Made by a program: the position numbers and the translations under genes. A model generated the notes under the pieces. The model saw only the letters and a list, made by a program, of their open reading frames with translations. It was not told where the DNA came from and ran no database searches. From Candidatus Aenigmatarchaeota archaeon (GTDB taxonomy: Archaea > Aenigmatarchaeota > Aenigmatarchaeia > GW2011-AR5 > JACRAC01), in assembly GCA_016187395.1 (NCBI GenBank), contig JACPJV010000033.1, positions 2,151 through 66,150 of the forward strand: a DNA stretch of 64,000 bases, in the 5' to 3' direction. This document shows positions 425-22,969 of this stretch, piece after piece (the stretch's first letter is position 1; each line of letters opens with the position of its first letter).

Positions 425-446
425 AAGTAGTAAAAAAGTTTGAAGT

Positions 447-1205: not shown

Positions 1206-1297
1206 GTCATATTATATGAATGCAAGGATAAATTTCTGACAGCAAGAACGCTTCAACACACTTATATTTTTCAGGCGCGAATTAGGGAGGTGGTTTT

Positions 1298-1966: not shown

Positions 1967-2377
1967 GTGACATTTGTGAAAGGAATTAAGAGATTGTTGG
2001 CAGCAGCGGCATTGCCGCTGGTTCTGGCTGGATGCGGGAGAGAACCAATGGAAGTAAGAACTTTTACTCAGGGTCCAGGTATATTTGACATTGAAAAGGT
2101 TGAACGTTATGAAGATAGAATAGAGGTAGTAAGAACAGGTCCGGGTTTAACATTCGATGCACAATGCGAAACTCACGATACTCACACTTTTTATCCATGT
2201 GACAGAAGATGGATAGATAAAAAACCCTATGGTTCATTGGATTATTGGAAAACAGAATGTCCGCTTGATTATGGTGCTTATGAGAGGAGTGGACAGGCAG
2301 ATAGCTATATGCAAGGAAAATACGAAGAAGATATAGCTCTTCTAAAGGCACAAGGCTGGAATTTTCCAGGTGAATAA
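1967..2377 (+). CDS. putative lipoprotein (paralog 1)
   Basis: Lipobox-like LPLVLAGC near the N-terminus. The track start is GTG; a GTG at 1976 is an alternative. The protein ends in FPGE. Confidence 0.6.
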   Translation: MTFVKGIKRLLAAAALPLVLAGCGREPMEVRTFTQGPGIFDIEKVERYEDRIEVVRTGPGLTFDAQCETHDTHTFYPCDRRWIDKKPYGSLDYWKTECPLDYGAYERSGQADSYMQGKYEEDIALLKAQGWNFPGE

Positions 2378-2378
2378 T

Positions 2379-2759
2379 ATGAGAAAAATATTAGCGACTT
2401 TGGCATTGCCACTTGTTTTGGCAGGATGCGGAGGAACACAGAAGCAGGATATTGTACGAACTGAATATTTCGGAAATATGGAAGTAACTAGATATTCCGA
2501 CCGCATAGAAATCCGTGCCCCTATTATTGTAAGACCGTTGGGAGGGGAGGAAAGAGTAAGCGGCTACACTATTTTGAGTGATACGCGACCTTTCGGGCGG
2601 TACAACCCTGAAGACAAGGGGTGGTTCGTGTGGACGGAAGGGACTTCCAGAGAAACGGCTAAAGTTGAAGACGAGCTTGACAGCAAAACGGTTGAGGAAG
2701 GTATGGAAAGTACAGTTCGTATCTTAAGGTCAAACGGTTACGACTATCCAGGTGAATAA
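2379..2759 (+). CDS. putative lipoprotein (paralog 2)
   Basis: MRKILATLALPLVLAGCGG carries the same lipobox as the upstream gene, and the protein ends in YPGE. The ATG at 2379 sits just after the upstream stop and is preceded by aggtga. Confidence 0.6.
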   Translation: MRKILATLALPLVLAGCGGTQKQDIVRTEYFGNMEVTRYSDRIEIRAPIIVRPLGGEERVSGYTILSDTRPFGRYNPEDKGWFVWTEGTSRETAKVEDELDSKTVEEGMESTVRILRSNGYDYPGE

Positions 2760-2761
2760 TC

Positions 2762-3886
2762 ATGGCAGAAAGCGAATTCATGTACGGCCTTGTCGGAGGC
2801 TTGATGATTTTAGGACTGCTTCTGCTCGTATTCAACACGACATGGGCGATGTCCTTTGATGGAGATGGTAATGACGCTGGAGAGGCGCAAAAAGGGCTTG
2901 TAGTGGTTATAAACGGCAGACCTGTGCTTATTCCTGCCGGGGATGATCAGCGTGTTGTAGCTGTTGCGCCAGGCGACAATGAAGTAGGCACACGCTTTGA
3001 AGATTCTTCTATATTCTCAATTCTAGGCAGCTTTGACATAAGCTCAGAGCCTGAAATGCTCAGCTTTCCGGGAGGCACGCTGAAGAACGGCTTGCTGTTC
3101 GGTGAGGAAAGCATGCGCTTTGTTGCAGAGAATCCAAGAAAGATTCGCGTCTTTATAACAAACGAGAATGATATAGGAGATTTTATAATGCTTGTAAATG
3201 GCAATGTTTTTGTGAAAGAGCGGCTTGCAGCAGGAATCCATGAATTTTTGCTTTCAGAGAGCGGTGAAACGCAGATAGAGCTGCGTGCAGAGTCAAGCGA
3301 ATGGAAGATATGGGCGCCTACGCTCTACGAAATAGCAAGCGTAGAAATTCAGAACACAAAAAGCGCAGATTATTTCACATTCAGCGCAGACCCGGAAAGA
3401 TTTCACAGAGGCACGCTGGAGTTTGATTTTTCAGAGAACTCGGGCACTATTGACGTAGAGCTGAACGGCCAGGCTGTGTACAGAGGAGCAACAGGCCAGA
3501 GGCTTGTCGTGCCTCTGAACAGTGTACCGGCGCAGAATACCGCGGTGATAAGGGCTCTGGACGGAGAATTCAGGGGCACAGCTTCTGCTTTGGAGATCGA
3601 CAGGGACAAGTTTGTGAAAACCTTCGACATCGAATACAGCGTAGAAGATAAGGCAAGAATGCCGGGATGGATAGCCTTTGATCTTATAGTATTGCAGCCA
3701 GGATCCCTGGTTGTAAGAAATATTCACAAAAACGGAGAATCCCTCATAACAGCAGAAGCCGCAACCAGCGGCTTTCACCTGTTGCAGTTGCGTGGAGAGC
3801 ACGTATCTGAAGGCGTAAACAAGCTTGTTTTCGAAGGCGCTGGGGATGGCTTATTCTTAATCAGAGATCTGCACGTTGTGGATTAG
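2762..3886 (+). CDS. membrane-anchored hypothetical protein
   Basis: 374-aa ORF with one N-terminal hydrophobic helix (LVGGLMILGLLLLVF). Its start is preceded by the same ccaggtgaataat junction found between the two lipoprotein genes. Confidence 0.65.
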   Translation: MAESEFMYGLVGGLMILGLLLLVFNTTWAMSFDGDGNDAGEAQKGLVVVINGRPVLIPAGDDQRVVAVAPGDNEVGTRFEDSSIFSILGSFDISSEPEMLSFPGGTLKNGLLFGEESMRFVAENPRKIRVFITNENDIGDFIMLVNGNVFVKERLAAGIHEFLLSESGETQIELRAESSEWKIWAPTLYEIASVEIQNTKSADYFTFSADPERFHRGTLEFDFSENSGTIDVELNGQAVYRGATGQRLVVPLNSVPAQNTAVIRALDGEFRGTASALEIDRDKFVKTFDIEYSVEDKARMPGWIAFDLIVLQPGSLVVRNIHKNGESLITAEAATSGFHLLQLRGEHVSEGVNKLVFEGAGDGLFLIRDLHVVD

Positions 3887-3963
3887 GTGATTTTACGGAC
3901 ACTTATCAGAACAATTATTGGAAGCTTGTAGAACTGGAAAGAAAAGCAAATTCATCAGACGAA

Positions 3964-4278
3964 GTGCCTAGCGAAACAACGTTGGCATGGCATTGCGGCC
4001 TTGATCAAGAAAGAGCAGAATTAGTGAGAGAACACGTAGAATATTGTGCAAAAAGATTCAGGAGTATCGGAAACGGAGTGATAAATGTTCTTCCAGTGCT
4101 TGGAGCAATTGCAGGGGTGTCCTTTGCAGAAAATCCGGTTGTTGGAGCGCTTTCAGGTTTTGGAATCGGCATTGTGGCTAGATCATTTCTGGGAGCAATT
4201 ATCTACACCTCCTCTACAAGACAAAGCAGAAACAGCACTTTAAACAAAATACCATATGAGATGAAAAGCCTGATTTGA
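3964..4278 (+). CDS. small membrane protein, hypothetical
   Basis: 104-aa ORF with a GTG start and Gly/Ala-rich hydrophobic segments. Confidence 0.4.
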   Translation: MPSETTLAWHCGLDQERAELVREHVEYCAKRFRSIGNGVINVLPVLGAIAGVSFAENPVVGALSGFGIGIVARSFLGAIIYTSSTRQSRNSTLNKIPYEMKSLI

Positions 4279-4286
4279 TACTGATG

Positions 4287-5288
4287 CTATTTCGCAAATC
4301 CCTTCAGAAATTCCCCGAGATTTCCCAGGCCAGGTATTTCTATCCTGTTTAAGTTAGTTCCCTGAGGAATGTATTTCATTCCAAGGAATACTCCCAGCGC
4401 CTGGGCTCTTTGATCCTGAGTAAGCTTGTCGCCAACGCCCTCCAGAAATCTCTCAACGTTTTCTTTTACGCCCTTTGCATCAGCTTCTGCTTTGGTGAAA
4501 GCAGTATATGCATCTGCATCGGCCAGAACCCTCCTGGCAGCAGCCTCCTGCTCAGCCTGGAACCTTCTTGACAGCGCTGCCTCGTCTTCCTCTGCAAGGT
4601 TGATTATTATTCTTGGAGCCTCTATGCGCAGGTTCAATTCTCTTGCCAGTTCTCTGTTCAGCTCAGGGAGTTTCTCTCTCACTTCCCTGGGTAGTTGTTC
4701 CTTCCCGTCCATAACGTCGTAATTCTTCGCCATTGCATTCACATGTTCAATGAACCTGTCTTCAGCAGAAGGAACAGCCTGCGATTCTCCGGTTTCCGTC
4801 TCTCCAAAATCCCTTGTAAAGCCCACCAGGAATCGCTGCAAGTCAGGATCGTCATCAATCACGTCTCTCGGAATGTCAGTAAGATTATAGACCTCTTTTG
4901 CACTGTCCCTCGCATACGCCTGATATCGGGGATTGCCTCTAAGAACTTTTCGCGCATCAAGGCGCAGGAACAGGCTTATGTCCATAGTAGCCCTTCCCAA
5001 TCCCTTGAACTCCACCTCTGCATCCTGCTTCTCTCTCCTTGCAGCCGCAAGATTCACTATGTAACCTGTGTCATTGATTGTTTTTACATAGATAATCTTC
5101 CCTCTGGAAGCTGCCGAGTATCGCTTTGTCCATGAATTATAAGATATAGCCACGTGCGTATCAGGAACCTCTCTGATTCCTACCCACTCTACCATGCCCC
5201 TGGCTTTGCTTCGCTGTCCATTTACTTCATCCAGCCTATATTTAGTAACAATCTGGTCTTCTTTCAGCACACCCAGCCTATGAACCAT
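4287..5288 (-). CDS. hypothetical protein with an Ala/Glu-rich coiled-coil C-terminal half
   Basis: 333-aa ORF. The C-terminal AEQEAAARRVLADADAYTAFTKAEADAKG stretch is faintly reminiscent of SPFH/flotillin tails. The family is not established. Confidence 0.6.
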   Translation of the reverse strand: MVHRLGVLKEDQIVTKYRLDEVNGQRSKARGMVEWVGIREVPDTHVAISYNSWTKRYSAASRGKIIYVKTINDTGYIVNLAAARREKQDAEVEFKGLGRATMDISLFLRLDARKVLRGNPRYQAYARDSAKEVYNLTDIPRDVIDDDPDLQRFLVGFTRDFGETETGESQAVPSAEDRFIEHVNAMAKNYDVMDGKEQLPREVREKLPELNRELARELNLRIEAPRIIINLAEEDEAALSRRFQAEQEAAARRVLADADAYTAFTKAEADAKGVKENVERFLEGVGDKLTQDQRAQALGVFLGMKYIPQGTNLNRIEIPGLGNLGEFLKGFAK

Positions 5289-5784
5289 TGTAACTACCTT
5301 TCAGTATTAACAATAGCAAAGTATTAAAGCCTTTGCATAGCTCACGTTTCTGTCATCCCGGCGGTGTGCCAAAACTAACCTTTCTATATTTTACAAAACA
5401 TTAAGGCGGAAAATCGAAGCCTTCTGCGTGTTTGTCAAATCTTGGTATGCTAACAAACGCATTTGACACCGTTTCTAAATAGGAATAGAAGGCTTTTTAC
5501 ATAGTCTGCTACTGAATGTATCTTTCGAGGTATATCCCGTAATCTAATGATTTCTCTCCAGACCGAATCGAAGCTGTTCATTTTTCCCGAACGTTACGTT
5601 TATGAAAAGTGAACAAGAACAAGCTGGCAAATGCACGGGAAGAGAACATCAGGAACAGAGCGAAGCTGAGAAGAAACGGCATGCTGATTGCAGACCTAAG
5701 TTCATACCCTCGAAAGGGCACCGGCTTTGCTGTGACATAGAAACGTATTAATACATTCTGGAGAAAATAGCAGTAGGTGTTCAG

Positions 5785-6520: not shown

Positions 6521-6658
6521 CCTTTCGAACCTCCTTTATATCTTTTCCATGATTTTTGGTTTCATTGAAATATGTTATTTTATGCGGGTTAAAAAGTAGT
6601 GGACAAACCTTGCATTCTTTTTCTAACCTATTTATTGCGCCTTTCGTCTAATTAATTG

Positions 6659-9600
6659 ATGGCGACAACGGGAGACAAAGATAGAGAGCGCTCTCGACTT
6701 TTGGCTGAATTGCATAAAAAATTCCCTCACCTGAAAGAGGAGATTAACAAGGCAAAAAATGCAATATTCCGCGCCCATGCGCTTGCAAAAAGGCACAGAA
6801 AAAACCCGCACAGGGCGCGGCACGAAATCGGCTACATGGTCCAGTCAGGCCTTCTGCCCGCGCAGATAGCCAGGCATTTTTTAGAGATGTTATTAGAACC
6901 TTGGGAACCTGCCGGCGAGAATATAGATGTAGAACTTCCTTTGAAGGCAACGAGGCAGGCAAGGGAAGGCGGAGGTGGCGGGAGCAGGCTTGGAACATCA
7001 GAACAGGAAATAGAAAATGTATGGAACAGACTCCTTCCGCTCAGAGGCGAAGATATAGTTAAAAAAGAGTTGAGAAGGCTAAAAAGAGACTACCACCCTG
7101 ATGGATACCCGAACCCGGCAGACAAAATTATCGGAGAGATTGTATTCAAGGAAATCGGAAGAATAGAAAGTCTTCTCAAGTCTTTATTATGGGTGCCTAC
7201 AGTTGCGTATTCTAAATATTACAATTTCACAAGAAGTCCGTTTGGCGCAACCGAGCCTTCTCCTGAAGAAGCCGAAGAACCACAGGCTGCTCCTGCAGCC
7301 GCAGCAGCTGGCGCAGGAACTGGTGGTGGCGCAGGCGCCCCGCCACAACCACCGCCAGGCCCAGCCGCTGCCGGCGGAGGGGCAGGCGGCGGACGCAGGA
7401 GATGGAAATGGGGATTTGGAAGGCGGGCTGCGGCAGCCGCCGGTGCTGCCGCCGCAGGCGCTGCTGCCGGCGCTGCAGCAGGCGGCACCGCAGGAGGAGC
7501 AGCAGGAGCAGGCGGCGCAGGCCAGCAGGCGCCACCTCCAGGCAGGTCCAATTTCAGTGGCATTGTCTATGTAAGATCGCCGCGCTGGGCGACCAGAGAG
7601 GCAGGGAAAGGATACCCTGAGCAGGCGCCAGCTGCTCGCACGAGGCGCTTTGCATTCGGAACAAGAAGGCTTCCGGGCGCATCTGTGGAATGCAAGGGAA
7701 GACGCGCAGAGACAAATGTATTGGGACAGTTTGCATTCTATAATCTTCCGCCCGGCGCAGCAGAAGCAAAGATAAAATACGGAGACTACGAGAAAAGTTT
7801 CAGCGTAACCCTGACTCCTGGAGAGAACTTCAGGGAATTTGTTCTGGACATGTCTCCGGAATATGCCGAGGCAGGGCTGAAGATAGAAAGGTCCAGGAAA
7901 TTCATGAAGGCGCGCAGCAAGCTTGCACCGCGAATGCCCATTGCAGTTTTTGCCTCGCGAATAAGAAAGGCATTGTTCGCAGAAGGAAAAAAATTTTATT
8001 TAGACAAGAAAAAAGAGCTTGACAGCCTGATAAAGCAGGAAAAAGACGACAAAGATATGCTCGAAGGAGCCCTTGACGCAATGGATGCAGAGATAGAAGG
8101 CGAAAATAGAGAAAAATTCAGACAAAACAGGGAAAAGATAATGTCAGGGGCAATAGGCGCAGCAGCCGGCGCAGGCGAAGAAGGAGCTGCAGTCGGCAAA
8201 CTTTTAGAGGCTCTTTCCAAGGTGTCGCAGAACAGGGAGAATAGAGCAAAAACCCAAAGGCTTATAAACAACGTAGAATTCTGGCAGAAAACACTTCTTC
8301 AGAGAAGAAAAGGGATAGAAGGAATTGCAGACAAATTCGAGGACCAGGTAGAGAAGCACCTTAATGAATTCATGGAAGGGCTTGTGGGAGAGGTTGCAGG
8401 AGAGTACGGCAGGGAATACAATCCACAGGACGTTGAGAATTTGAAATTATGGATGAAGAAGTATGTCGCACTATACTCAAGGCATTACACAAAGCTTTTC
8501 AAGACAGGCAAGGGAATGCTGCGTTTCAAGGCTTTCGCTGGCCAGGGATTTCTTGGCGCAGGTGCCTACGGCATGGGCGCTCGTGAAATGCTCAATACGA
8601 TCGTCAAGGACTGGTGGGGCGTCTGGTTGTGGCCTCTGCTTAACTTATTCGTCCCTCCGCTTGGCTGGATCGTTCTTATCATATGGGCGATAATGAAGAT
8701 ACCTCTTGCGTCATCAGTGGTAGTGCTGTGGCTGCAGGTCGGCTTCCTTGTCGGCGGCACCATATTGGGATTAGCCTCGCTGCCGGGTTATACAGCAGCA
8801 GCCACGCTGACGCAGCTGCTGATTTTAGGGTTCATAGGAGGCGTGCTCAACTGGATTCTTAACATGCGGACGCAGGTTTCAGTAGGCCCTCTTTTTGAGG
8901 GCACACCATTCGGGACAATACTGCAGCAGTTTAGCCACATCACCGCAGGCGCCATGATATTCATTGGAGTCGGCATCTTCACAATGAGCCTGCAGCTTGG
9001 CCTTCCTGGCGTGGAGGGAATAGCGCTTATGGCAGGTGTTATATTATTATTCGCATTCCTCCTGCCGCCTGAGTATCTCTCTATGCTCATCATCGTTTTC
9101 ATAGTAATGGCAGGATTTTTCCCTGCGCTCGGCGGCGCAGCTACTGCAGTCTATGGAATCTTCGTAATAATGGGCATGACAAACTTCTATCCTGTGAGCG
9201 GTCTCGGCGGCATGAACGTAATTGCGCTTGCGGTTCTTGTTTTTGGTTATTTTGCACTTGGTCCTTACAGCGCCTTTGTGATAGATGCAATGAGCCAGAT
9301 CAAAGCGCCTATAACCTTTGCAGTAAACCAGGCAAAGGTCGCATTTAGTGACGTCTGGCTTTTGCTAACAAATCCTACAGCTTATTATCAGTCCCAGCAG
9401 TTCCGGCAGGTGAGGGCAGAGAGGCCTATCAGCTTTCCAGAAGGCGTGGAGATCACGCGTCTGGACGCAGTGCCGGACGGCACCGTGCCTGCAGGACAAC
9501 CCTTTGTCGTTTTTGCAGTCGTTGAAAACAGGGGAGACCAGGTTGCAGAGAACGTGCGGGTAACCGCGCAGTGCTCGCCAGGAACTCCTGCAAGCGCCAA

Positions 9601-10891
9601 GTGCAGTGTCTTGGACAGGAATGGCAATCCGGTTCTGATAGAAGGAAGAAAACTGGGAAGCCTTGGTCCCCGTGAGGTGAAGAGCATTGAGTTCAGGTTT
9701 GCTGCAAACCACAGGATAGACGATCCAAACCGCATAGCAGAAACCGTCTTCAACAGGGTTAACGTGAGCGTTGCTTATAATTATGATACTTCATCGCGCC
9801 TGCAGGTGGAAGTCGCGACAGAACAGGAAGTGCAAAGAAGGCAGCTGAATAACGAGCCTGTCTTTGTTCCTATTCCGGCAGTAGGCAAGGTAGGGCCTGC
9901 GCAGCTTTCTGTTTACGTGGGTCCTCAGCCGCTTTTGTTTGGTCAGACTGCAGAAGAAGAAACAATCCAGCAGGAAAAGCTGATTGTTGCAGCTATCTCC
10001 AATGCGCGGCCTGACGCAGAGATTGTCGTGTGGAAGGGAATCGAATGGAACATAACACTTTCAGAAGGGCTGGGCACAAACCTGCGCTGTTCAGAAGTAT
10101 CCTGCTCGATAATAGACACAAGAAAAGTCCAGTGCACGTTCAGCAGGGAAGATACGATAGCAAGCCGCAAAGCTGAACAAGAGGAAGAAGCCTTGAGAAG
10201 CGCGAGCAGAAGCGAAATATTCTTTGAAAAGGCCGGAGATGTGGTCGAATATCTGATGTATCTTGGAAACCAGCCTGAGCAGCAGACCGGCGATGTTCAT
10301 GTCATCAGGCCCTATGAATTCAAAGATTATTGGGTGCAGGTCTGTGAATTCACGCCAGATGCTGTTCTTGAAAACTCAAGGACAGGGATAATCACATCCA
10401 CGCTTGAAGACTATATTGTTCACCTGAACAAGGAAAAGAGCGTTGCAGTAGGCCCGCCTCTTGGGATAATCGGCGAGGAAGTCAAGCCAGAAGCGCCGAC
10501 ACTAGACCTGACCGTTGATATTTTGGCAACAGGGGAAAAGATGGTCAAGCTGGAGTGGACAGACAACAGCGACAATGAGAAAGGATTCAGGATATACAGG
10601 CAGAAGGAAGGCGAAGGCTACATACAGCTGCTGGAGATGCAGCCAGGCAACACCAGATTTGTAGACGATTCTTTCGCAAAAAGATTTCTGCAGGTTAAAG
10701 GGCAGCCGTACATACCTGGAACGATTCTTGCCTCGGAGTTTCCGAAAAAATACAAATACCAGGTGCGATCATTCAATTCCGCAGGCGAAGCCTCTTCCAT
10801 AGAGAAGAACATCGAAGTCATTCTTATTACGCAGAGAAATGCGCAGGGAGCGGATATAGTCCAGGATATGGACATAATAATTATTCCATGA
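6659..10891 (+). CDS. giant multidomain membrane protein: J-like domain, A/G/P-rich linker, polytopic membrane core, CARDB-like and FN3-like C-terminal domains
   Basis: ~1410-aa ORF. It contains LRRLKRDYHPDGYP (HPD at 7094-7102), a low-complexity tract at 7270-7545, and about 10 hydrophobic helices at ~8610-9380. It also has a CARDB-like PFVVFAVVENRGDQVAENVRV stretch and an FN3-like stretch (KLEWTDNSDNEKGFRIYRQ...YKYQVRSFNSAGEAS). Confidence 0.85.
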   Translation: MATTGDKDRERSRLLAELHKKFPHLKEEINKAKNAIFRAHALAKRHRKNPHRARHEIGYMVQSGLLPAQIARHFLEMLLEPWEPAGENIDVELPLKATRQAREGGGGGSRLGTSEQEIENVWNRLLPLRGEDIVKKELRRLKRDYHPDGYPNPADKIIGEIVFKEIGRIESLLKSLLWVPTVAYSKYYNFTRSPFGATEPSPEEAEEPQAAPAAAAAGAGTGGGAGAPPQPPPGPAAAGGGAGGGRRRWKWGFGRRAAAAAGAAAAGAAAGAAAGGTAGGAAGAGGAGQQAPPPGRSNFSGIVYVRSPRWATREAGKGYPEQAPAARTRRFAFGTRRLPGASVECKGRRAETNVLGQFAFYNLPPGAAEAKIKYGDYEKSFSVTLTPGENFREFVLDMSPEYAEAGLKIERSRKFMKARSKLAPRMPIAVFASRIRKALFAEGKKFYLDKKKELDSLIKQEKDDKDMLEGALDAMDAEIEGENREKFRQNREKIMSGAIGAAAGAGEEGAAVGKLLEALSKVSQNRENRAKTQRLINNVEFWQKTLLQRRKGIEGIADKFEDQVEKHLNEFMEGLVGEVAGEYGREYNPQDVENLKLWMKKYVALYSRHYTKLFKTGKGMLRFKAFAGQGFLGAGAYGMGAREMLNTIVKDWWGVWLWPLLNLFVPPLGWIVLIIWAIMKIPLASSVVVLWLQVGFLVGGTILGLASLPGYTAAATLTQLLILGFIGGVLNWILNMRTQVSVGPLFEGTPFGTILQQFSHITAGAMIFIGVGIFTMSLQLGLPGVEGIALMAGVILLFAFLLPPEYLSMLIIVFIVMAGFFPALGGAATAVYGIFVIMGMTNFYPVSGLGGMNVIALAVLVFGYFALGPYSAFVIDAMSQIKAPITFAVNQAKVAFSDVWLLLTNPTAYYQSQQFRQVRAERPISFPEGVEITRLDAVPDGTVPAGQPFVVFAVVENRGDQVAENVRVTAQCSPGTPASAKCSVLDRNGNPVLIEGRKLGSLGPREVKSIEFRFAANHRIDDPNRIAETVFNRVNVSVAYNYDTSSRLQVEVATEQEVQRRQLNNEPVFVPIPAVGKVGPAQLSVYVGPQPLLFGQTAEEETIQQEKLIVAAISNARPDAEIVVWKGIEWNITLSEGLGTNLRCSEVSCSIIDTRKVQCTFSREDTIASRKAEQEEEALRSASRSEIFFEKAGDVVEYLMYLGNQPEQQTGDVHVIRPYEFKDYWVQVCEFTPDAVLENSRTGIITSTLEDYIVHLNKEKSVAVGPPLGIIGEEVKPEAPTLDLTVDILATGEKMVKLEWTDNSDNEKGFRIYRQKEGEGYIQLLEMQPGNTRFVDDSFAKRFLQVKGQPYIPGTILASEFPKKYKYQVRSFNSAGEASSIEKNIEVILITQRNAQGADIVQDMDIIIIP
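7270..7545 (+). repeat. GC-rich low-complexity Ala/Gly/Pro-coding tract inside the giant ORF
   Basis: Runs of gcagc/gccgc/ggcgg units are open in several frames on both strands (track ORFs 7203-7574, 7219-7563, 7227-7535, 7402-7620). Confidence 0.8.
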
Positions 10892-11486: not shown

Positions 11487-12326
11487 CTAAACCCCAATCA
11501 CCAGCCTTATGATATTCCTCAGCCCTGGCGCAAAGCCCACTATGAATACAGCAATTTTCAGAAACCCACGCAACTGTTTTTCTTCATCTTTGCGCAATTC
11601 TTTGTCAAGAACCCACAGCACAAGCGGCACGACTATGAGTTTGAGCAAAAACTGGCCTGCAGGGCCAAGAAAGCCGATCAGAAAATTGCTCAGCACGTGC
11701 TGCTCGAAGTAGCCTTGGCTTGCATAGAACTGCAAGGCGGTGAAGGTGGTAGATGCATCAAACATGTGCGTGAAAAGCAGAAGAGAATTTTCCTTTGTCA
11801 TCCACGCCAGCTGCCTTATTTTTTCCCTGTATCTGTATCCTGCGTATATCACAACGCCCCATGCAGCCGTGATGCCAGCTGCAATCAGAAGCGCCCCAGG
11901 ATTCTGGCTGCCTGCAGGAATGAGCAGCACTAGGGCAAAAAGCGCAAAGACCCAGCCAATAATCATCCAAGGCTTCCAGTATCTTTGCGCATCCTTCATC
12001 ACATACCTTGCTATGGCGAGCGCAGCGCCAAGCCCTGCTAATGCAACAAGAAAGATGACAAAATAAATTACAGGCGAGACGAGCAGATAAGTCGTGTAAA
12101 GGTTCGTGTCCTGAAGGACGCGCAGCAGGCTGCCGAAAAGGATGAAGGGGAATATGCCTAAGAAGAATTTTTTATCAATATTAATCTGCAATCTTCTCAA
12201 AAGTCTGTATATGCCAAACACCGCCAATGCAAAGACGATGGCGTATGCTGCGGTATTGACTGCATTATAACCCGTGTTCTCGATTATCGGGCGGATGAAG
12301 TAATCATTGAAGAAGTCCAGAGCCAT
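11487..12326 (-). CDS. polytopic membrane protein (DUF63-like by recollection)
   Basis: 279-aa ORF with 7-8 hydrophobic helices. The N-terminus FIRPIIENTGYNAVNTAAYA resembles the archaeal DUF63 family. Confidence 0.7.
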   Translation of the reverse strand: MALDFFNDYFIRPIIENTGYNAVNTAAYAIVFALAVFGIYRLLRRLQINIDKKFFLGIFPFILFGSLLRVLQDTNLYTTYLLVSPVIYFVIFLVALAGLGAALAIARYVMKDAQRYWKPWMIIGWVFALFALVLLIPAGSQNPGALLIAAGITAAWGVVIYAGYRYREKIRQLAWMTKENSLLLFTHMFDASTTFTALQFYASQGYFEQHVLSNFLIGFLGPAGQFLLKLIVVPLVLWVLDKELRKDEEKQLRGFLKIAVFIVGFAPGLRNIIRLVIGV

Positions 12327-12408: not shown

Positions 12409-13761
12409 ATGCCCCTGCAGAAAGTGCTTGCAAGAATAAAGCCGTCGCAGAAAGAAATTGATGAAGTCCATAAATTCCTCGGCCGCCTTGAGGACGAAAC
12501 AAGAAAGCTGGGCTGCGAAGGCCTTGCTGCCGGAAGCATCGGCAAGCACACGTGGCTGAAAGGCGACCACGACATAGACTGGTTTTTGATGTTTCCAAAA
12601 GAAACCAGCCGCGAACTTCTTGAAAAAGAAGGTCTGGCTATCGGAAGAAAGCTCGCGAAGGCGTTGCGCGGAAAAATCCAGATAAAATACGCAGAGCATC
12701 CGTATACGAGGATATTGTTCAAAAAATATCACATCGATGTCGTTCCTTGCTACAAGATCGAGAAAGGCGAGCGTATCATAAGCGCCGTTGATAGGTCTCC
12801 TTTGCACCTTGCTTTTATAAATGAAAAAATGCCCGCAAAGGCGCAGGATGACGTGCGCCTTCTAAAACAATTCTTGAAAGGCACGCATGTGTATGGCAGC
12901 GACCTGAGGCGCAGCGGCTTTTCTGGATACATAGCAGAGCTGTTGGTAATTAAATATGGCTCTTTTGCTGATACAATCAAGAATGCGGCAAAATGGAAAC
13001 CCGGTCTTGTCATAAACATGGGAGCATCCAGGATATCGAAGTTGGAGAAAGTGCCTCTTACGATAATAGACCCGGTGGATGAGAAGCGAAATGTGGCTGC
13101 CGCCCTGAACGAAGAGAACTTTCTCCGCTTTGTGTCGGTATGCAACCAGTTTTTGAAGAAACCCTCCTTGGATCATTTCTTCCCGAAGGATCTTGCATTG
13201 AAGGGGGTGGAAATCAAAAATTTGCAGTCACGCGGCACTTACTGGTTTGCGTTTGTTGGAAAAGCGCCGGATGTCATAGATGACATCCTCTGGCCCCAGA
13301 TGCGCCGCGCCTCCGAACGCATCGGAAACCTTCTGAAGAAAAATGATTTTGAAATATACACAAAGGGCGTTTTTGCAGGCAAAAAAATGACCCTATGGTT
13401 TGAGCTGGAGGAAGGGCAGAAGCCGCATGCGGAAAAAATGACAGGCCCTCCTATATACGCGAAAAACAATTTCACGCAGTTCCTGGAAAAATATTCGGAT
13501 TCAGAGTTCGGCATAGCAGTCGAAGAAGACAAGGTAGTGGCGTATAGAAGAAGGCCGATGCAAAAGGCATCAGAAATAAAAACGATATCTAAAAAGCCGC
13601 TCGAATGGATGCAGCAGAACGGAATTCCCGGCAACATAGCGTCTTCGCTCAGGAAAGGAAGATTTACAGAGCAGAAAAAATTCTGGAGATTTGTGAGAAA
13701 AAACAAGGAACTTTCAAGATATATGAGAAGAAAATATTTTGAGACGGCTTTGTCATTATGA
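12409..13761 (+). CDS. cca: CCA-adding enzyme (archaeal class I tRNA nucleotidyltransferase)
   Basis: GSIGKHTWLKGDHDIDWFLMFP nucleotidyltransferase motif, with length and layout typical of archaeal Cca. Confidence 0.9.
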   Translation: MPLQKVLARIKPSQKEIDEVHKFLGRLEDETRKLGCEGLAAGSIGKHTWLKGDHDIDWFLMFPKETSRELLEKEGLAIGRKLAKALRGKIQIKYAEHPYTRILFKKYHIDVVPCYKIEKGERIISAVDRSPLHLAFINEKMPAKAQDDVRLLKQFLKGTHVYGSDLRRSGFSGYIAELLVIKYGSFADTIKNAAKWKPGLVINMGASRISKLEKVPLTIIDPVDEKRNVAAALNEENFLRFVSVCNQFLKKPSLDHFFPKDLALKGVEIKNLQSRGTYWFAFVGKAPDVIDDILWPQMRRASERIGNLLKKNDFEIYTKGVFAGKKMTLWFELEEGQKPHAEKMTGPPIYAKNNFTQFLEKYSDSEFGIAVEEDKVVAYRRRPMQKASEIKTISKKPLEWMQQNGIPGNIASSLRKGRFTEQKKFWRFVRKNKELSRYMRRKYFETALSL

Positions 13762-14471: not shown

Positions 14472-14520
14472 ATTAGGAAAACAAAATATAAATAGGCTTG
14501 AGAAATGACATGCTTCTTAT

Positions 14521-14621
14521 ATGAACCGCTGGCTAAAGCCAGTGGTTTCCTGAAGCATGGCATGCCAAAGAACTTCGGTATCTTACTCCTCACTGAAGTG
14601 AGGAGTTTGCGAAGTTCTTTG
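14521..14621 (-). repeat. S2 structured element, copy D (between UPF0147 and sepF, same strand)
   Basis: The minus strand reads, in order: outer stem 5' half aaagaacttcg; caaa; hairpin ctcctcac-ttca-gtgaggag; taagatac; outer stem 3' half cgaagttcttt; linker ggcatgccatgcttcaggaa; hairpin accactggc-ttta-gccagcggt; tcat. Confidence 0.6.
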
Positions 14622-14625
14622 TGCA

Positions 14626-14961
14626 TCATCTTCCATTCTTTATTTTGACTTCGTTGTTTATCGTTTCCAGCATCGACAAAGCATTCCATATCTGCGTCCT
14701 TGAATAAGGCGGCAGATTTATGTCGTTGGCAACCTCGTCGAGAACAGATATAGCGGAATTAACGCGAAATTCCAGCTCAAGCTTTTCATTGGAAAGAAAC
14801 TCCATGGCCTTTACAATAGAGCTCTTTACGTTCTTCGGCACCGACCTGTCGTTGCCAATCTCCTCCAGAACGTTGATTACTAAATTTACTTCCATATGAT
14901 CACCCGTTGCACTTTCAAAATCCATTTGCGTCTGAATCATATCACCCTGCTTGCTTTCCAC
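14626..14961 (-). CDS. UPF0147 family protein
   Basis: GNDRSVPKNVKSS...ANDINLPPYSRTQIWNALSMLE matches the duplicated UPF0147 motif. Confidence 0.8.
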   Translation of the reverse strand: MESKQGDMIQTQMDFESATGDHMEVNLVINVLEEIGNDRSVPKNVKSSIVKAMEFLSNEKLELEFRVNSAISVLDEVANDINLPPYSRTQIWNALSMLETINNEVKIKNGR

Positions 14962-15292
14962 TGCCAGGTTTTATCATATTCTGAAGTTCATCCTGGGATT
15001 CTTTCATCATAGCTTCAAGCCTTTTTTCTTGCTTTTCAAGCCCCTTGATTTTCATGTCTATCTGCATCACGATCTCTTCCAGCTCTTCTTTCAGTTTTTC
15101 TTTCGTGCTTTTTAAGAGAACAGGCCCGACAGACTTGAATATGTCCCCTTTTGCATTAGCCACCTCCTCCAATGCCCTTTCTATTTCAATTTTTTGCATT
15201 GACAAAGACTGCTTCTGCATGACTACATTTTGCAGATGCTGGTTCTGTTCCTGGGCCCTGCCGAGTATTTCCTGAATCTCTTCATTCGCCAT
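14942..15292 (-). CDS. pfdB: prefoldin subunit beta
   Basis: Coiled-coil/beta-hairpin layout (QKQSLSMQKIEIERALEEV...DIFKSVGPVLLKSTKEK...LEKQEKRLE). The start was chosen at MANEEIQ, preceded by gtgaggt. Confidence 0.85.
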   Translation of the reverse strand: MANEEIQEILGRAQEQNQHLQNVVMQKQSLSMQKIEIERALEEVANAKGDIFKSVGPVLLKSTKEKLKEELEEIVMQIDMKIKGLEKQEKRLEAMMKESQDELQNMIKPGSGKQAG

Positions 15293-15469
15293 CGCAATCA
15301 ACCTCACGATTGCTCGCAAGCAATCGTGCATTCACCTTACACCTCTCGTTTCGCCGCGGCGACGGAAGCAAATGACATTTTCTGCAGAAAATGTCCATTC
15401 ACTCGCTGCATTCACTTTCAACCCCACGTTTTCCCGCAGGAAAACGTGCATTCACTTACACACCCGCCG
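15293..15469 (-). repeat. leader-hairpin array L1a (between rpoP and pfdB)
   Basis: Hairpins cacgattgct-cgca-agcaatcgtg (15305-15328), gacattttc-tgca-gaaaatgtc (15374-15395) and cacgttttcc-cgca-ggaaaacgtg (15425-15448) are joined by tgcattcac/cctcac linkers. Confidence 0.75.
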
Positions 15470-15595
15470 CTACACAGCCTTGACGCGCCTTACAACTTCA
15501 GGCCTTGCCTTTACTAATATGCGAAAACCGCAGTAGCTGCAGCGCACCTTGTCTTCTATTTCAACCTCCTTCTTGCACGAAAAACATCTATACAT
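15470..15595 (-). CDS. rpoP: DNA-directed RNA polymerase subunit P (Rpo12)
   Basis: Hand translation gives MYRCFSCKKEVEIEDKVRCSYCGFRILVKARPEVVRRVKAV, a zinc ribbon of typical RpoP size. It lies between rpl37ae and pfdB, as in many archaea. Confidence 0.8.
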   Translation of the reverse strand: MYRCFSCKKEVEIEDKVRCSYCGFRILVKARPEVVRRVKAV

Positions 15596-15690
15596 CGTTG
15601 ACACACCTCACATTTCGCTGCAGCGAAATGTGCATTCACATTCGACCTCACGTTTTCCCGCAGCAAAACGTGCATTCACCTTTCACACTA
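15596..15690 (-). repeat. leader-hairpin array L1b (between rpl37ae and rpoP)
   Basis: Hairpins cacatttcgc-tgca-gcgaaatgtg (15609-15632) and cacgttttcc-cgca-gcaaaacgtg (15649-15672). On the minus strand the array ends in gtgaggtgtgtcaacg directly before the rpoP ATG. Confidence 0.75.
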
Positions 15691-15921
15691 TCAGGCTTTT
15701 GCAACCCTTCCAAAATCGTATGCGCCTGAGGCAAATTTGACGTTGCATTTTGAGCATTTCCATATGCCTGTTGATATGCGCCTTACAGATGTCCGGGAGC
15801 ATGAAGGGCATTTTTTCTCCCCGGCATACCTGCTCTCAGCTGCCAGAACAGCAGCCCTTATGCGCTTTCCATATCTTGCACCGAACCTTGCATTAACCTT
15901 CTTTTTCACCATAAGCAACAC
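15691..15921 (-). CDS. rpl37ae: 50S ribosomal protein L37Ae (eL43)
   Basis: RFGARYGKRIR...CPSC...GIWKCSKCNVKFASGAY zinc-ribbon signature. The start may be at 15912 (MVKKK). Confidence 0.9.
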   Translation of the reverse strand: MLLMVKKKVNARFGARYGKRIRAAVLAAESRYAGEKKCPSCSRTSVRRISTGIWKCSKCNVKFASGAYDFGRVAKA

Positions 15922-16040
15922 AGAATTCTAAATACTTCAACAGAATGTATATAAGGCTTTTGGAGGATTGCATCTTAAGGTATCGGACATAAAGAGCATC
16001 AAAATGGATATAAGAACTTTCCCGTTATGCTATTTTCTTT

Positions 16041-16316
16041 ATGGAACAATTGAGGTCGTATTTATCAAGAGAGGGTTGGATAGAAGACTGGAGAAAAACG
16101 CGCGAAGACGTTCGCGATGAATATCGCAGCGTCAAGAGAACATTCGGAAATGAAAACGGAAGTTGCGGCGTTATTCTTGCCGCTGCCGTTGTTGCCACGC
16201 CAGTATGCGCCTATGCAGGAAGCTATTTTGGAGAAGGGGCAGGATATGTAGTAGGTCAAATTATTGATTTTTTGCCCGGAGTTAACAGGGTAGCCCCGTG
16301 GCTGGCTGAAATCTAG
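16041..16316 (+). CDS. small hypothetical protein with a Gly/Ala-rich hydrophobic segment
   Basis: 91-aa ORF. No family recognised. Confidence 0.45.
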   Translation: MEQLRSYLSREGWIEDWRKTREDVRDEYRSVKRTFGNENGSCGVILAAAVVATPVCAYAGSYFGEGAGYVVGQIIDFLPGVNRVAPWLAEI

Positions 16317-16445
16317 CATTCCGCCAGTCTGTGACTGGTGGTAAGGCGGAATGCGGATGTAAAAAACTCCGATATGATATTTGGAGGCATCTATTTAGAT
16401 ACTTTTATCATAAGATGCCTCCGGTCTGTGACCGGAGGTTTTTCA
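16316..16445 (+). repeat. S4 four-hairpin element, copy 1
   Basis: ~130 nt running gcattccgccagtctgtgactggtggtaaggcggaatgc...ctccggtctgtgaccggaggtttttcac. It is homologous to 31129-31258(-), with compensatory changes between the copies. Confidence 0.6.
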
Positions 16446-16496
16446 CAGATGCGGAGACCTGGGGCAAGGCCTTGACAGGCATGAGTTGAACGTTGA

Positions 16497-16592
16497 ATAT
16501 AGTGCTGCAAGGAATAAATCATGATATAATAATTCCTTGCGCACTATATGTGAACCAAATCCAAGTCGGTGTTATTAATTTGGTTCACTATA
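16497..16592 (+). repeat. S5 double-hairpin element, copy 1
   Basis: tatagtgctgcaaggaat...attccttgcgcactata followed by gtgaaccaaat...atttggttcactata. The second copy is at 56436-56530. Confidence 0.6.
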
Positions 16593-16680
16593 TTACCAAA
16601 CAGCAGGTGCAGTTGGCGGCTTCTGGGGAGGATTGGGGTTTCCTTGGTGGGCTTTAAACAAGCTAGTTCGTTGACCAAAC

Positions 16681-18549
16681 CTATCTCAATCTTACACATT
16701 CAATCAGCTTTGGAGCAGACGTTTCTACCCTCAGTTCGCTGTGAGCCAGCCGTGCAAACGCGCCTGAAACAGAGCTCTCTCCGTGGTTGCATATGATCCT
16801 CTTTGGAGTGGCTTTCAGGTGCCTTATCCAGTCAAGAAGCTGGCTTTTTCCGCTATGGCCGCTGAGGCCCTTTATAGTTCTGATTTCTAATTTTAATTCC
16901 AGCCCCCTGTCATCGCCTTCCATAGGAACAAATTTCCACCCTTTCTGTATCCTTCTGCCTAAGGTCGCTTCAGCCTGGTATCCTACGAACAAGAGCATGT
17001 TTTTAGGGTCGCCGGAAAATTCCTTCGTATACTCTACAATCGGTCCGCCCTGCATCATGCCTGATGTCGCAAGTATGACGGCAGGCCCAGATATATTCAG
17101 AACCTCCCTTCTTTCCTTGCCCGATCCTATCCCTTTGAGACGCGGATCCACGAAAGGATTCTTCCTCTGTTTCAGAATGCGCAATTGCATTTCCTTTGAC
17201 ATGAATTCGGGATAGGCGGTGTGGATGGCAGTAGCGTCCCACAGCATTCCGTCTAAGATTATTGGCACGTCAAGCCCTGCGTCTATGAGCATCACTATTA
17301 CATCCTGCGCACGCCCCACCGCAAACGTCGGTATAAGCACCTTTCCTCCGCGTTCTATAGCCTCCTTTACTGACGCGATGAGGTCATGCTCTCCCTGTAT
17401 GTGTGAAGGGACATCCTCGTCTCCGTAAGTGCTCTCTATTATCAGTCCTTCCACCCTCGCATAGTCTGTGTAAGTAGGGTTGAACATCTTTGTCTTCTCG
17501 TATTTTATATCTCCTGAGTAGAGAAGGTTGTACAGGCCGTTTCCTATGTTAAAATGGCACGTGCTTGCCCCTATGATGTGGCCTGAGTTTTCCAGGGTAA
17601 GCCTTATGTCTGCAGTTATGTCAGTTACCTGGCCATATTCCAGACTCACGCAGTGTTTCACCATCTCTTCTATCCCCTTTGATGAATAGGGAGCCTTCCC
17701 TCCTTCTTTCTGCGCAACTCCTATGTAGTCCAGCTGCAGTAAAATCGAGAGATCGCGCGTAGGTCTTGTGCAGAACAAAGGGCCTCTGAACCCGTATTCA
17801 TACAGGTACGGAATCAGGCCGACGTGGTCCAGGTGTGCATGCGATGCGACTATCGCATCAAGCCTTTGTATGTCAAATTCAGGGACGTCCAGGTAAGGAA
17901 ACTGGCGGCTACCAAATGCGACCCCACAGTCTAAAAGCACGCGTGATTGCGGCGTCTGCAAAAGCAGGGCGCTCCTCCCTACCTCACGGAATGAGCCCAG
18001 CCCGGTCACGCGTATCCATTCCACAGGCTTGCTTTCTCCGTATATCTTCAACCCGAGATTGTGCAAGAATTTTTTTCTATACCCGGCTTCTTTATGCAGC
18101 ATCCTTCTTACCGTTGCGATGATCTCGCTGTCTATGGCAGGCGTACGCTTGATCTCAGGCGTCCAGAACGTGTTTTTCTTTATGTTTTGTAGCGTAAGGC
18201 CAGCCTTGCCTATGGCCATGCCGGGTTTTTCCGCATGTATAATAACCTTTGCAAACTCCGGTTCAAAGTAAATATCCCTGACGCCGGCATCTGCCGATAT
18301 CTTTTCTCTTATCAGTTTTTCCGTTGTCTCCTCGTCTGCAAGTATGCTTGCATGTGCCCTTACCTCAACCCTCTTTTTTACCTCGCTTACTATGCTTTTT
18401 ACAAGAGGCATGGAATTTTGAGCAAATTCCTTGTTGGAAGTGTAGAGAATAATGTCAGGCCCTTCGTAGACTATTTCCTCTATTTCCGCATCCTTCGGTA
18501 TCTTGCCCTTCACCTGTTCAATAATTCCTACATTTCCTGCGTTGCTCAC
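16681..18549 (-). CDS. aCPSF1: aCPSF1/FttA-type beta-CASP ribonuclease with N-terminal KH domains
   Basis: 622 aa with a GTG start after gaggtgat. Metallo-beta-lactamase motif HAHLDHVG, beta-CASP region and an N-terminal KH-like region. Confidence 0.9.
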   Translation of the reverse strand: MSNAGNVGIIEQVKGKIPKDAEIEEIVYEGPDIILYTSNKEFAQNSMPLVKSIVSEVKKRVEVRAHASILADEETTEKLIREKISADAGVRDIYFEPEFAKVIIHAEKPGMAIGKAGLTLQNIKKNTFWTPEIKRTPAIDSEIIATVRRMLHKEAGYRKKFLHNLGLKIYGESKPVEWIRVTGLGSFREVGRSALLLQTPQSRVLLDCGVAFGSRQFPYLDVPEFDIQRLDAIVASHAHLDHVGLIPYLYEYGFRGPLFCTRPTRDLSILLQLDYIGVAQKEGGKAPYSSKGIEEMVKHCVSLEYGQVTDITADIRLTLENSGHIIGASTCHFNIGNGLYNLLYSGDIKYEKTKMFNPTYTDYARVEGLIIESTYGDEDVPSHIQGEHDLIASVKEAIERGGKVLIPTFAVGRAQDVIVMLIDAGLDVPIILDGMLWDATAIHTAYPEFMSKEMQLRILKQRKNPFVDPRLKGIGSGKERREVLNISGPAVILATSGMMQGGPIVEYTKEFSGDPKNMLLFVGYQAEATLGRRIQKGWKFVPMEGDDRGLELKLEIRTIKGLSGHSGKSQLLDWIRHLKATPKRIICNHGESSVSGAFARLAHSELRVETSAPKLIECVRLR

Positions 18550-19313: not shown

Positions 19314-19380
19314 CTAGACACACCTCACGTTTTGCGAAGCAAAACGTGCATACACCTTCAACCTCACGATTCATCTTCAC
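19314..19380 (-). repeat. leader-hairpin unit L2 upstream of psmB
   Basis: cacgttttgc-gaa-gcaaaacgtg (19326-19348) flanked by cacctcac and tgcatacacc. The minus strand ends in gtgaggtgtgtctag directly before the ATG. Confidence 0.7.
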
Positions 19381-20119: not shown

Positions 20120-20216
20120 TATAGCAAGCCAACTTAATGAAAGGCATACCAAAAGTTGGTTTGCTATATGGGAAAGCACAAATGTCATGTTCCATTTCAT
20201 TTGTGGTTTCACTATA
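20120..20216 (-). mobile_element. TA-bracketed double-hairpin (MITE-like) element, copy 2
   Basis: The reverse complement aligns end to end with 53017-53112, about nine-tenths identical by eye. Confidence 0.6.
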
Positions 20217-21882: not shown

Positions 21883-21908
21883 ACCAGACGAATCTTCTGT
21901 TTTATCTT

Positions 21909-22016
21909 CGGAAGCCTCCTCCTAAAACCTCTGGCTTTAGCCAGAGGATAAGGATACAGGAGGCTTCCGAGATGCTTTGCTTCAAGAAACCGCAGGCTTT
22001 AGCCTGCGGTTCATAG
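21909..22016 (+). repeat. S2 structured element, copy B
   Basis: In order: outer stem 5' half tcggaagcctcc; ..taaaa; hairpin cctctggc-ttta-gccagagg; ataaggatac; outer stem 3' half aggaggcttccga; linker gatgctttgcttcaagaa; hairpin accgcaggc-ttta-gcctgcggt; tcata. Confidence 0.65.
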
Positions 22017-22034
22017 ATGCGCAGTTTCCAAAGG

Positions 22035-22857: not shown

Positions 22858-22969
22858 GGGCCTGTGGTGTAGCTTGGTTATCATTCGAGCCTTGGGACAG
22901 ACTGACGCTTCGAAGAAGCGTCTTTTTGCATCATAGCTCGCGACGCCAGTTCAAATCTGGCCAGGCCCA
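22858..22969 (+). tRNA. tRNA-Pro (anticodon UGG) with a 38-nt intron at 37/38 (22897-22934)
   Basis: Acceptor GGGCCTG/CAGGCCC, U8, A14, G18G19, anticodon stem CGAGC/GCTCG, loop CTTGGG..A, T-arm GCCAG-TTCAAAT-CTGGC, discriminator A, no encoded CCA. The intron contains the hairpin gacgcttc-gaa-gaagcgtc. Confidence 0.85.

Follow-up and report, generated by a model that had tools for sequence, protein, structure and literature searches.

The repeat family described here lies in a 64-kb stretch of DNA (the window, whose positions are used throughout unless a relative is named) from a metagenome-assembled genome of a Candidatus Aenigmarchaeota archaeon of the DPANN group, and all results concern this one genome, this window and ten intact repeat units. 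The main array locus belongs to a minus-strand gene cluster consisting of psmB, aCPSF1, rpl37ae, rpoP, pfdB, UPF0147 and SepF, and the same psmB-to-SepF gene order is also present in three relatives, designated L038, L039/L040 and L041. The aCPSF1 gene (16681-18549, minus strand) encodes a protein with 100% identity to NCBI protein MBI2583982.1; in homologue searches the nearest other aCPSF1 proteins are 67-69% identical and the nearest prefoldin-beta homologue is 67% identical. Pfam places rpoP in PF03604, the homologues of pfdB carry PF01920, and a gene elsewhere in the window with winged helix-turn-helix (wHTH) and HAD features, which is also preceded by the repeat, belongs to PF12710.

Five intact hairpin units lie head-to-tail on the minus strand of 15293-15690, two in the 95-nt spacer between rpl37ae and rpoP and three, together with a truncated flank, in the 177-nt spacer between rpoP and pfdB. 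Read in the direction of the genes, they bear out the anatomy given in a preliminary description of this DNA, in which a stem, a short loop and the return stem are set between conserved flanks. Type I units have the form (A/G)GTGAATG-CAC-(7-nt T-rich arm)-loop-(A-rich arm')-GTG-AGGT, with TGCG, TGCA, TTCG or TTC as the loop, a 10-bp stem and a length of 35-40 nt; the unit consensus is AGGTGAATGCACGTTTTGCTGCGGCAAAACGTGAGGT. Units follow one another at a period of 40-41 nt, the 40-nt period being composed of the hairpin and a 16-nt linker, and the conserved linker reads GAGGT-N5-GTGAATG. Three units, designated type II, are closed by GAC...GTC, which represents a compensated C-G to G-C flip, and run on as (C)ATTTGC(T); base pairing of this extension with the GUGAAUG flank, two G.U pairs included, lengthens the stem to about 17 bp. 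The extension of the type II stem through the 5' flank hints at a longer palindrome as the ancestral form, in which case the 3' half of the outer stem in type I would have been replaced by a sequence bearing a Shine-Dalgarno (SD) motif.

A covariance model, as the preliminary description had recommended, was trained on eight units and run across the whole window with filters off. Exactly 10 full units were detected, fewer than the approximately 12 first estimated, and nothing else scored above noise; about five truncated or decayed units are present besides. The intact units are grouped in five arrays at four loci, where they fill 5' leaders and intercistronic spacers, and all 10 lie outside open reading frames (ORFs). 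As had been proposed, units precede psmB, a small zinc-ribbon gene and the wHTH/HAD gene in addition to the two spacers above. All 10 matches are in sense orientation relative to the downstream gene, and none occurs elsewhere in the 64 kb. Simple motif counts are likewise raised: GTGAATGCAC with at most one mismatch occurs 17 times against 3.7 expected, a count reached by none of 100 shuffles, and GCAC-N14-26-GTGAGGT occurs five times against 0.17 expected. The units and their remnants are as follows.

15645-15680 (minus): U1, type I, GGTGAATG-CACGTTTTGC-tgcg-GGAAAACGTG-AGGT, 43.5 bits; first unit after the rpl37ae stop (15691-15693), with the sole stem mismatch (G.G).
15605-15639 (minus): U2, type I, GTGAATG-CACATTTCGC-tgca-GCGAAATGTG-AGGT, 62.7 bits; GAGGT ends 9 nt before the rpoP ATG (15595).
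15421-15456 (minus): U3, type I, 3' flank GTGGGGT, 63.1 bits; first unit after the rpoP stop (15470-15472).
15404-15415 (minus): truncated 5' flank GTGAATGCAGCG, without a hairpin.
15341-15403 (minus): U5, type II composite, AGTGAATG-GACATTTTC-tgca-GAAAATGTC-ATTTGCT, 30 bits; the longer GGAC...GTCA variant, its 5' flank GUGAAUG pairing with CAUUUGC (two G.U pairs included), followed by a second small hairpin (tcgccgcggcga) and then GAGAGGT.
15301-15337 (minus): U6, type I, AGGTGAATG-CACGATTGCT-tgcg-AGCAATCGTG-AGGT, 61.2 bits; GAGGT ends 8 nt before the pfdB ATG (15292).
19322-19356 (minus): U7, in the psmB leader, GGTGTATG-CACGTTTTGC-ttc-GCAAAACGTG-AGGT, 59.8 bits; 8 nt from the psmB ATG (19313), between the conserved TATA box TTAAATACTTC and the start.
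19361-19380 (minus): hairpin-less remnant GTGAAGATGAATCGTGAGGT, read from the sequence; the 8-nt CGTGAGGT within it recurs as a direct repeat at the 3' end of U7.
34834-34861 (minus): decayed unit ATGCAC-gactgagaggcgaat-GTGAGGC, read from the sequence; flanks retained, palindrome gone.
34792-34828 (minus): U8, type I, with a C(UUCG)G loop, 63.1 bits.
34751-34785 (minus): U9, variant, 3' flank GCGGGGT, closing pairs CGC/GCG, 41.6 bits; the 8-nt 5' flank is swapped for its reverse complement (GTGCATTC) and the loop is flipped (cgaa versus ttcg); 9 nt from the ATG at 34741 of a 43-aa Zn-ribbon-like ORF.
36712-36775 (plus): U10, type II composite, GAGTGAATG-GACGTTTCTC-tgca-GAGAAACGTC-AGTTTGCC..., 53.5 bits; first unit after the stop of gene 35140-36699, followed by a half-hairpin ctgcagagaaat and then GTGAGGT.
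36780-36791 (plus): truncated 5' flank ATGAATGCAGCG, the same piece as 15404-15415.
36792-36854 (plus): U11, type II composite, identical in sequence to U5, 30 bits; GAGAGGT ends 9 nt before the ATG at 36864 of the wHTH/HAD gene.

Pairing within the stem was counted in an alignment of eight units, in which 10 pairs give 80 stem cells. Seventy-nine of these (98.8%) pair, the exception being the mismatch in U1, and double-sided changes occur in seven of the 10 stem pairs, whereas one-sided changes to G-U occur in none. The observed pairing and compensation were reached by none of 500 shuffles, and no slid register came close, so that the earlier claim that the stems stay palindromic as they vary is upheld. 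The stems had also been said to differ between units. They do vary, with mirrored changes in the two arms, but they are not unrelated, as all are variants of a single consensus, CACGTTTTGC, with GTTTTGC as the 7-nt arm. Identity to the consensus is 91% in the flanks, 92% in the outer three pairs, 81% in the inner seven pairs, 75% in the loop and approximately 50% in the remainder of the linker. A contrast of variable stems with conserved linkers is therefore true in degree only, and the real signal is the mirroring of every stem change. This covariation had been taken to argue for selection on structure. The compensation is real, but compensated stems are not by themselves proof of selection on RNA structure, and maintenance at the level of DNA fits at least as well, because G-U intermediates are absent, decayed copies exist, and the loop TGCA is self-complementary, making perfect DNA palindromes of the four of 10 units (three distinct sequences) that carry it. 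Such DNA-level maintenance could consist of arm-to-arm template switching or of a requirement of the copying process.

Each array ends at a start codon. The terminal GAGGT(G) stands 8-9 nt before the ATG at all five starts (9 nt at rpoP, the Zn-ribbon ORF and the HAD gene, 8 nt at pfdB and psmB), which narrows the 8-16 nt given earlier for the end of the last unit and places a purine tract at the SD-type position, 5-10 nt from the start. Other leader-bearing genes in the window have GGAGGTGA-type motifs 5-9 nt upstream of the start, and many promoter-proximal genes show a TATA-like box approximately 25-35 nt before the ATG and are apparently leaderless. Because the spacing of GAGGT matches that of the other SD-led genes, the 3' flank of the unit appears well placed to act as the working SD of the downstream gene; the anti-SD sequence is assumed here from general archaeal knowledge, as the window holds no 16S gene. 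In centroid folds of two spacers, the terminal SD and AUG are mostly unpaired, being fully open in one spacer and touched by a 3-bp extension of the last hairpin in the other.

The phasing is not confined to the last unit. An ATG lies within the conserved 5' flank (GTGA-ATG-CAC), and in every internal linker it follows the preceding GAGGT by exactly 9 nt; given this distance and the 40-41-nt period, the repeat can be re-phased as GAGGT-N9-ATG-hairpin, that is, as a reiterated translation-initiation region. In the final repeat of an array the gene's own ATG occupies the place of the unit ATG. The upstream unit ATGs open short or in-frame ORFs, the 40-nt period shifting the frame from unit to unit, and in three of the five arrays a unit ATG is in frame with the downstream gene. 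This has a practical consequence for annotation, as gene callers are misled by in-frame upstream ATGs into N-terminally extended ORFs; longest-ORF calling yields spurious extensions of 13 (14942-15331), 27 (34610-34822) and 28 residues (36780-38387). The 9-nt phasing from GAGGT to ATG had escaped the preliminary description, as had the two collinear array copies and the other intergenic hairpin families of the window, both of which are described below.

Comparison of the arrays with one another points to copying of DNA. Separated by 21 kb and located on opposite strands, the rpoP-pfdB spacer and its counterpart at 36700-36863 are collinear throughout, the aligned stretch covering approximately 130 nt, and the order in both is a type I/II unit, then the truncated flank GAATGCAGCG, then a type II unit, a second, small hairpin and GAGAGGT. 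They share a block of approximately 75 nt that is 100% identical, and differ in that one contains U6 as an additional, inserted unit and the other a 26-nt half-hairpin. A second case is the psmB leader. The TATA box TTAAATACTTC upstream of psmB is kept in the window, L038 and L041, and the distance from this box to the ATG is approximately 103 nt in the window versus 59-62 nt in the relatives; the surplus corresponds to one unit (~40 nt), bracketed by the 8-nt direct repeat CGTGAGGT. Given the collinear arrays with their identical block and the psmB leader that is longer by one unit, it is evident that single units as well as entire arrays were duplicated as DNA from one locus to another. U1 has a chimera-like structure, its 5' and 3' arms belonging to two different stem types, and this mix of arms, like the flipped loop and inverted flank of U9, is a rearrangement expected of palindromic DNA.

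In the nearest relatives (67-69% aCPSF1 identity), the syntenic loci gave no match to the covariance model. Searches for exact patterns in 185,579 GTDB representative genomes, in JGI metagenomes and in IMG/VR returned only matches without arm complementarity, with three to seven mismatches of seven between the arms, and most of the genome and metagenome matches are near-identical soil-bacterial stretches, apparently one conserved sequence. The modules have no Rfam match at the gathering threshold or at E <= 1, in agreement with the earlier failure to recognize a described element. As far as these tools see, the family appears confined to this lineage. The statement that the module expands the spacers it occupies holds for the rpoP-pfdB gap, which measures 177 nt here and 7, 4 and approximately 45 nt in L038, L041 and L039, respectively, and for the psmB leader; it does not hold for the rpl37ae-rpoP spacer, which at 95 nt is no longer than the approximately 80-131 nt of the relatives.

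Hairpins of other kinds occur in the relatives. In L041, the rpl37ae-rpoP spacer (5437-5567) contains four tandem hairpins of unrelated sequence (z = -6.9), one of which (CACCCAGC...GCTGGG) is found again at 3302-3323 of L041. L039 also has a hairpin array, two hairpins of which are linked by GTAC, and a motif GGTGNGAAT-(TCCGC-tatt-GCGG) precedes three genes of its operon; in the form GGTGNGAAT-N-GTCCGCTATTGCGG this stands before rpl37ae, rpoP and UPF0147 (11881-11904, 12180-12203 and 12746-12769). GTGAATG was considered as a conserved operon motif and was discarded, as it occurs once each in the L038 and L039 spacers, which is too sparse against chance.

Tentatively, we favor the reading that these units are a lineage-specific, dispersed palindromic repeat of approximately 40 nt, similar to repetitive extragenic palindromes (REPs) and bacterial interspersed mosaic elements (BIMEs) of bacteria, in which the 3' flank serves as SD and the hairpins punctuate the mRNA. 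Since the spacers lack a TATA-like box, the units would be transcribed together with the flanking genes. Copies may have been made among SD-containing leaders and intercistronic sites with the SD-like GTGAGGT as shared homology, and if so, this would explain both the sense orientation and the fixed distance to the start. An RNA-level role of the hairpin is something we infer from its placement: in the mRNA, local hairpins would punctuate the operon, shielding both the upstream cistron at its 3' end and the downstream cistron at its 5' end from exonucleases, and they may hold the purine-rich SD and the AUG single-stranded and so insulate the initiation region. Each unit also has two additional SD-like motifs, GGUGA and GAGGU, at which 30S subunits could be retained; as such standby or stabilizer sites they would resemble REP-mediated segmental mRNA stabilization in E. 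coli and STAB-SD in Bacillus. Several observations weigh against this reading. The complete lack of G-U pairs in the 80 stem cells and the self-complementary loops favor maintenance of the palindrome in DNA over selection in RNA. A strand test carries no information, as wobbles in near-perfect intergenic hairpins number four in sense and four in antisense, and whole-spacer folding z-scores are modest (-2.1 to -2.7). The upstream copies of SD and ATG could send ribosomes into short or N-terminally extended ORFs, a cost and not a benefit. Finally, two of the four lineages (L038 and L039) show no significant structure in the rpl37ae-rpoP spacer, so that the hairpins are not a conserved requirement of the operon. 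A further reading, which we regard as doubtful, is that the unit is a self-propagating "portable ribosome-binding site" aimed at the junction of SD and start codon, with the SD as homology; it would bring along a correctly spaced replacement SD, making insertion harmless, and its hairpin would be kept perfect by arm-to-arm templating.

The main competing explanation, possible if on the unlikely side, is that these are selfish or neutral DNA repeats without RNA function, spread by illegitimate or template-switch copying at the SD microhomology GTGAGGT, with arrays growing by duplication of 40 nt. Insertions would survive only where an SD is regenerated at the right distance, so that nothing but the retained SD would matter, and the palindrome would be kept by template switching between arms or as a single-stranded DNA hairpin needed for copying. 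Much of what has been described above is consistent with this: the identical block shared by collinear arrays, the psmB insertion of a single unit between direct repeats, the decayed and truncated units, the absence of one-sided changes together with TGCA loops that make perfect DNA palindromes, the chimera-like U1 and the rearranged U9, which are typical of palindrome-driven events, and the absence of the module from relatives that have other hairpin families instead. However, Pfam identified no transposase, Y1/RAYT protein or integrase among the approximately 60 ORFs of the window, and all 10 units still score and 79 of 80 pairs are kept despite 9-19% divergence, which calls for an active maintaining force; in addition, the G.U pairs of the type II extension exist on the sense strand only. 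The gradient of conservation, which drops inward from 91-92% to 81% and to 75% in the loop while all changes are compensated, is the usual signature of a protein-bound hairpin, and with the strict sense orientation it would suit sites for a dedicated RNA-binding protein or endoribonuclease that reads the single-stranded GUGAAUG and AGGU flanks and the closing CAC/GUG on an arbitrary stem, thereby processing or regulating polycistronic mRNAs as a post-transcriptional regulon. This appears unlikely, as no protein emerged as a candidate, no obvious function unites the genes served (rpoP, pfdB, psmB, the Zn-ribbon ORF and the HAD paralogue), relatives with the same operon lack the module, there is no kink-turn, C/D-box or Rfam match, and the conserved flanks are simply SD-like, for which the ribosome suffices as reader.

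Far less probable still is that the units are DNA operators, with the 24-bp palindrome CAC-GTTTTGC-N4-GCAAAAC-GTG as the binding site of a dimeric transcription factor or chromatin protein. The palindromes are perfect and a 40-nt spacing corresponds to about four helical turns, but the half-sites vary and are nonetheless always mirrored, which a sequence-specific dimer would not require; most arrays lie between co-transcribed genes and not at promoters, and neither the asymmetric flanks nor the strict orientation would be needed. That the units encode leader peptides or N-terminal extensions (MHVLLRENV...) from their own SD and ATG is very unlikely, and is the least probable of the explanations considered. 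It would account for the ATG found 9 nt after a GAGGT in each unit and for the in-frame upstream ATG left by three of five arrays; against it, a 40-nt unit is not a multiple of three and frames differ between units, the psmB unit reads just eight codons, compensatory palindromic change is the opposite of a coding constraint, sense and antisense module peptides have no match at E <= 1 in 5.8 billion protein clusters, and the pfdB proteins of relatives begin at the annotated Met. Several known structures were also rejected. A kink-turn or box C/D motif would use the two UGA motifs as tandem G.A pairs, which by inspection is incompatible with a covarying 10-bp stem, and a bulge-helix-bulge was likewise rejected by inspection. 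Intrinsic terminators do not fit stems that precede AGGT and not T-runs, a CRISPR array does not fit the lack of unique spacers and the presence of just two to four units per array, and REP-induced ribosome stalling at stop codons does not fit a first stem that begins 18 nt after the rpl37ae stop.

The likeness to REP and BIME elements in concept, pointed out in the preliminary description, is a reasonable analogy. Both are palindromic extragenic repeats of approximately 35-40 nt with a lineage-specific sequence; both form clusters with conserved linker motifs and are placed chiefly between unidirectional genes, where they are co-transcribed, presumably so in the present family. Differences are equally apparent, in that the unit consensus lacks the GTAG or CGTC tag that marks one end of the REP palindrome (PMC3733652), the units run head-to-tail whereas REPs within BIMEs alternate in orientation, the stems are perfect whereas those of REPs are imperfect, and the units abut the downstream start and carry its SD. 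Bacterial REPs are mostly found downstream of coding regions (PMC3733652) and have been proposed or shown to stabilize upstream mRNA segments (PMC3733652, PMC2817692). The cognate genes of REPs, which encode REP-associated tyrosine transposases (RAYTs), typically have REPs on their flanks. Subclasses of RAYTs have been reported only from bacteria, archaea having only Y1 proteins of the IS200 type (PMC6006769). A Pfam scan of the approximately 60 ORFs of the window alone gave no Y1_Tnp, RAYT or other transposase. REPs usually exceed 100 copies per genome, and the present family numbers 10 units in 64 kb. A survey of 2025, RepRanger, reports putative REP-like elements across archaeal genomes, which are likewise intergenic stem-loop repeats other than intrinsic terminators; its definition is very broad and takes in any non-terminator intergenic palindrome (PMC12306157); a term search of it gave no mention of DPANN, RAYT or orientation, and the passages of the survey drawn on here contain no SD-phased 40-nt unit, arrays or orientation rule (PMC12306157).

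Miniature inverted-repeat transposable elements (MITEs) and mosaic repeats such as Correia/CREE, ERIC, BOX and RUP resemble the units in being non-autonomous, dispersed and hairpin-forming and in lying in leaders and intercistronic regions, and they can supply signals for expression and alter the stability of mRNA in an orientation-dependent manner (PMC3184786). The present units are shorter (40 nt versus approximately 100-300 nt), have no terminal inverted repeats beyond the hairpin arms and have no parent insertion sequence in the window; evidence of a target-site duplication is ambiguous, as the CGTGAGGT repeat bracketing the psmB unit also belongs to every unit. The STAB-SD of Bacillus cryIIIA and standby sites are similar in placing SD-like purine tracts beside a hairpin in an untranslated leader, but these are single, gene-specific elements and the present units form a dispersed repeat family. 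Such tracts could bind 30S subunits and block 5'-to-3' exonucleases, and to our knowledge nothing equivalent has been shown in archaea. The family is taken here to work like a REP/BIME or a small MITE and is filed as a member of neither; it has no GTAG/CGTC tag and no alternating orientation, and no RAYT was found among the approximately 60 ORFs scanned.

The window is rich in other hairpins. Perfect hairpins of at least 8 bp number 32, compared with 5.0 +/- 1.6 in dinucleotide shuffles, and 24 of the 32 fall in the approximately 20% of the DNA that is non-coding. About one quarter of the excess is contributed by the family described above, and several other hairpin-repeat families occupy the intergenic DNA. 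A MITE-like element of approximately 98 nt, TTATAGTGAAACCACAAATG...GTTGGTTTGCTATAA, with two imperfect palindromes and TATAG-type ends, has the following four intergenic copies.

224-276 and 375-425 (plus): one copy, in two parts.
53016-53113 (plus): uninterrupted copy.
20120-20215 (minus): copy.
61610-61703 (minus): copy.

Within the copy at 224-425, 277-374 (plus strand) is occupied by four perfect 9-bp hairpins with unrelated stems, GAA/TTC triloops and (T)GTAC(A) linkers. This array appears to have been inserted, since at the corresponding point the copy at 53016-53113 runs on without a break (CCCATA followed by TAGCAAACC), and a GTAC-linked hairpin pair is also present in L039 (7381-7426). 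Two further sites, 16498-16548 and 56436-56486, carry a related palindrome of 51 nt, TATAGTGC...GCACTATA. Three copies of a repeat of approximately 125 nt with two structured domains lie on the plus strand at 1-125, 21900-22030 and 43514-43645, with a partial copy at 14500-14560; it holds hairpins of the form AACC-(variable stem)-TTTA-(stem')-GGTT, and RNAalifold predicts 34 pairs, 14 of them retained via double-sided changes. Its core TCCGAGATGCT is also found in L041 (3272-3323), it has no Rfam match, and it could be a noncoding RNA or another mobile repeat. A 51-nt direct repeat, 98% identical, is present at 60787-60837 and 61304-61354 (plus strand), 517 nt apart in a region of short ORFs, and contains the hairpin CCTTTTCT-ttca-AGAAAAGG.

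The aCPSF1-rpl37ae spacer (15913-16680), next to the array locus, is 768 nt long, whereas its counterparts in L038, L039 and L041 measure 34-53 nt. Inside it are a 91-aa ORF that runs on the opposite strand (16041-16316), the TATAGTGC palindrome and, at 16418-16438, a hairpin followed by a T-run (CCTCCGGTC-tgt-GACCGGAGG-ttttt) that occurs again at 31137-31157. The genes at 35140-36699 and 36864-38387 (plus strand), between which a module array sits, are tandem paralogues aligned by DNA repeats at a spacing of 1700 nt; the former has just a weak winged-helix-type match, and the latter and 38496-39809 (plus strand) have HAD domains. A 1411-aa ORF at 6656-10891 (plus strand) and eight neighboring ORFs (447-5288) have no Pfam match at E <= 0.001 and make up a block of uncharacterized genes. 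No tRNA was reported by ARAGORN for the window; Rfam in E-value mode alone (46.9 bits; gathering score 29) found a tRNA gene at 22858-22969 (plus strand) that has an intron of approximately 40 nt and the perfect hairpin 22904-22922 inside it, and that ARAGORN and the Rfam gathering mode both missed.

The dispersed palindromic repeats of bacteria have been studied well, those of archaea are scarcely characterized, and limited literature searches returned nothing on such repeats in DPANN lineages. A repeat that is phased with the starts of five genes provides a concrete case of repeats building, or hitch-hiking on, translation-initiation regions. If the unit were indeed a portable ribosome-binding site, it would represent a new mode by which a small element spreads and remodels operon spacers in a reduced DPANN genome, possibly alongside several other hairpin families of the same clade. 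As this family makes up about one quarter of the excess hairpins of the window and relatives carry other families in the same spacers, Aenigmarchaeota may tolerate, or use, hairpin repeats as operon punctuation, which would be surprising for a streamlined genome.

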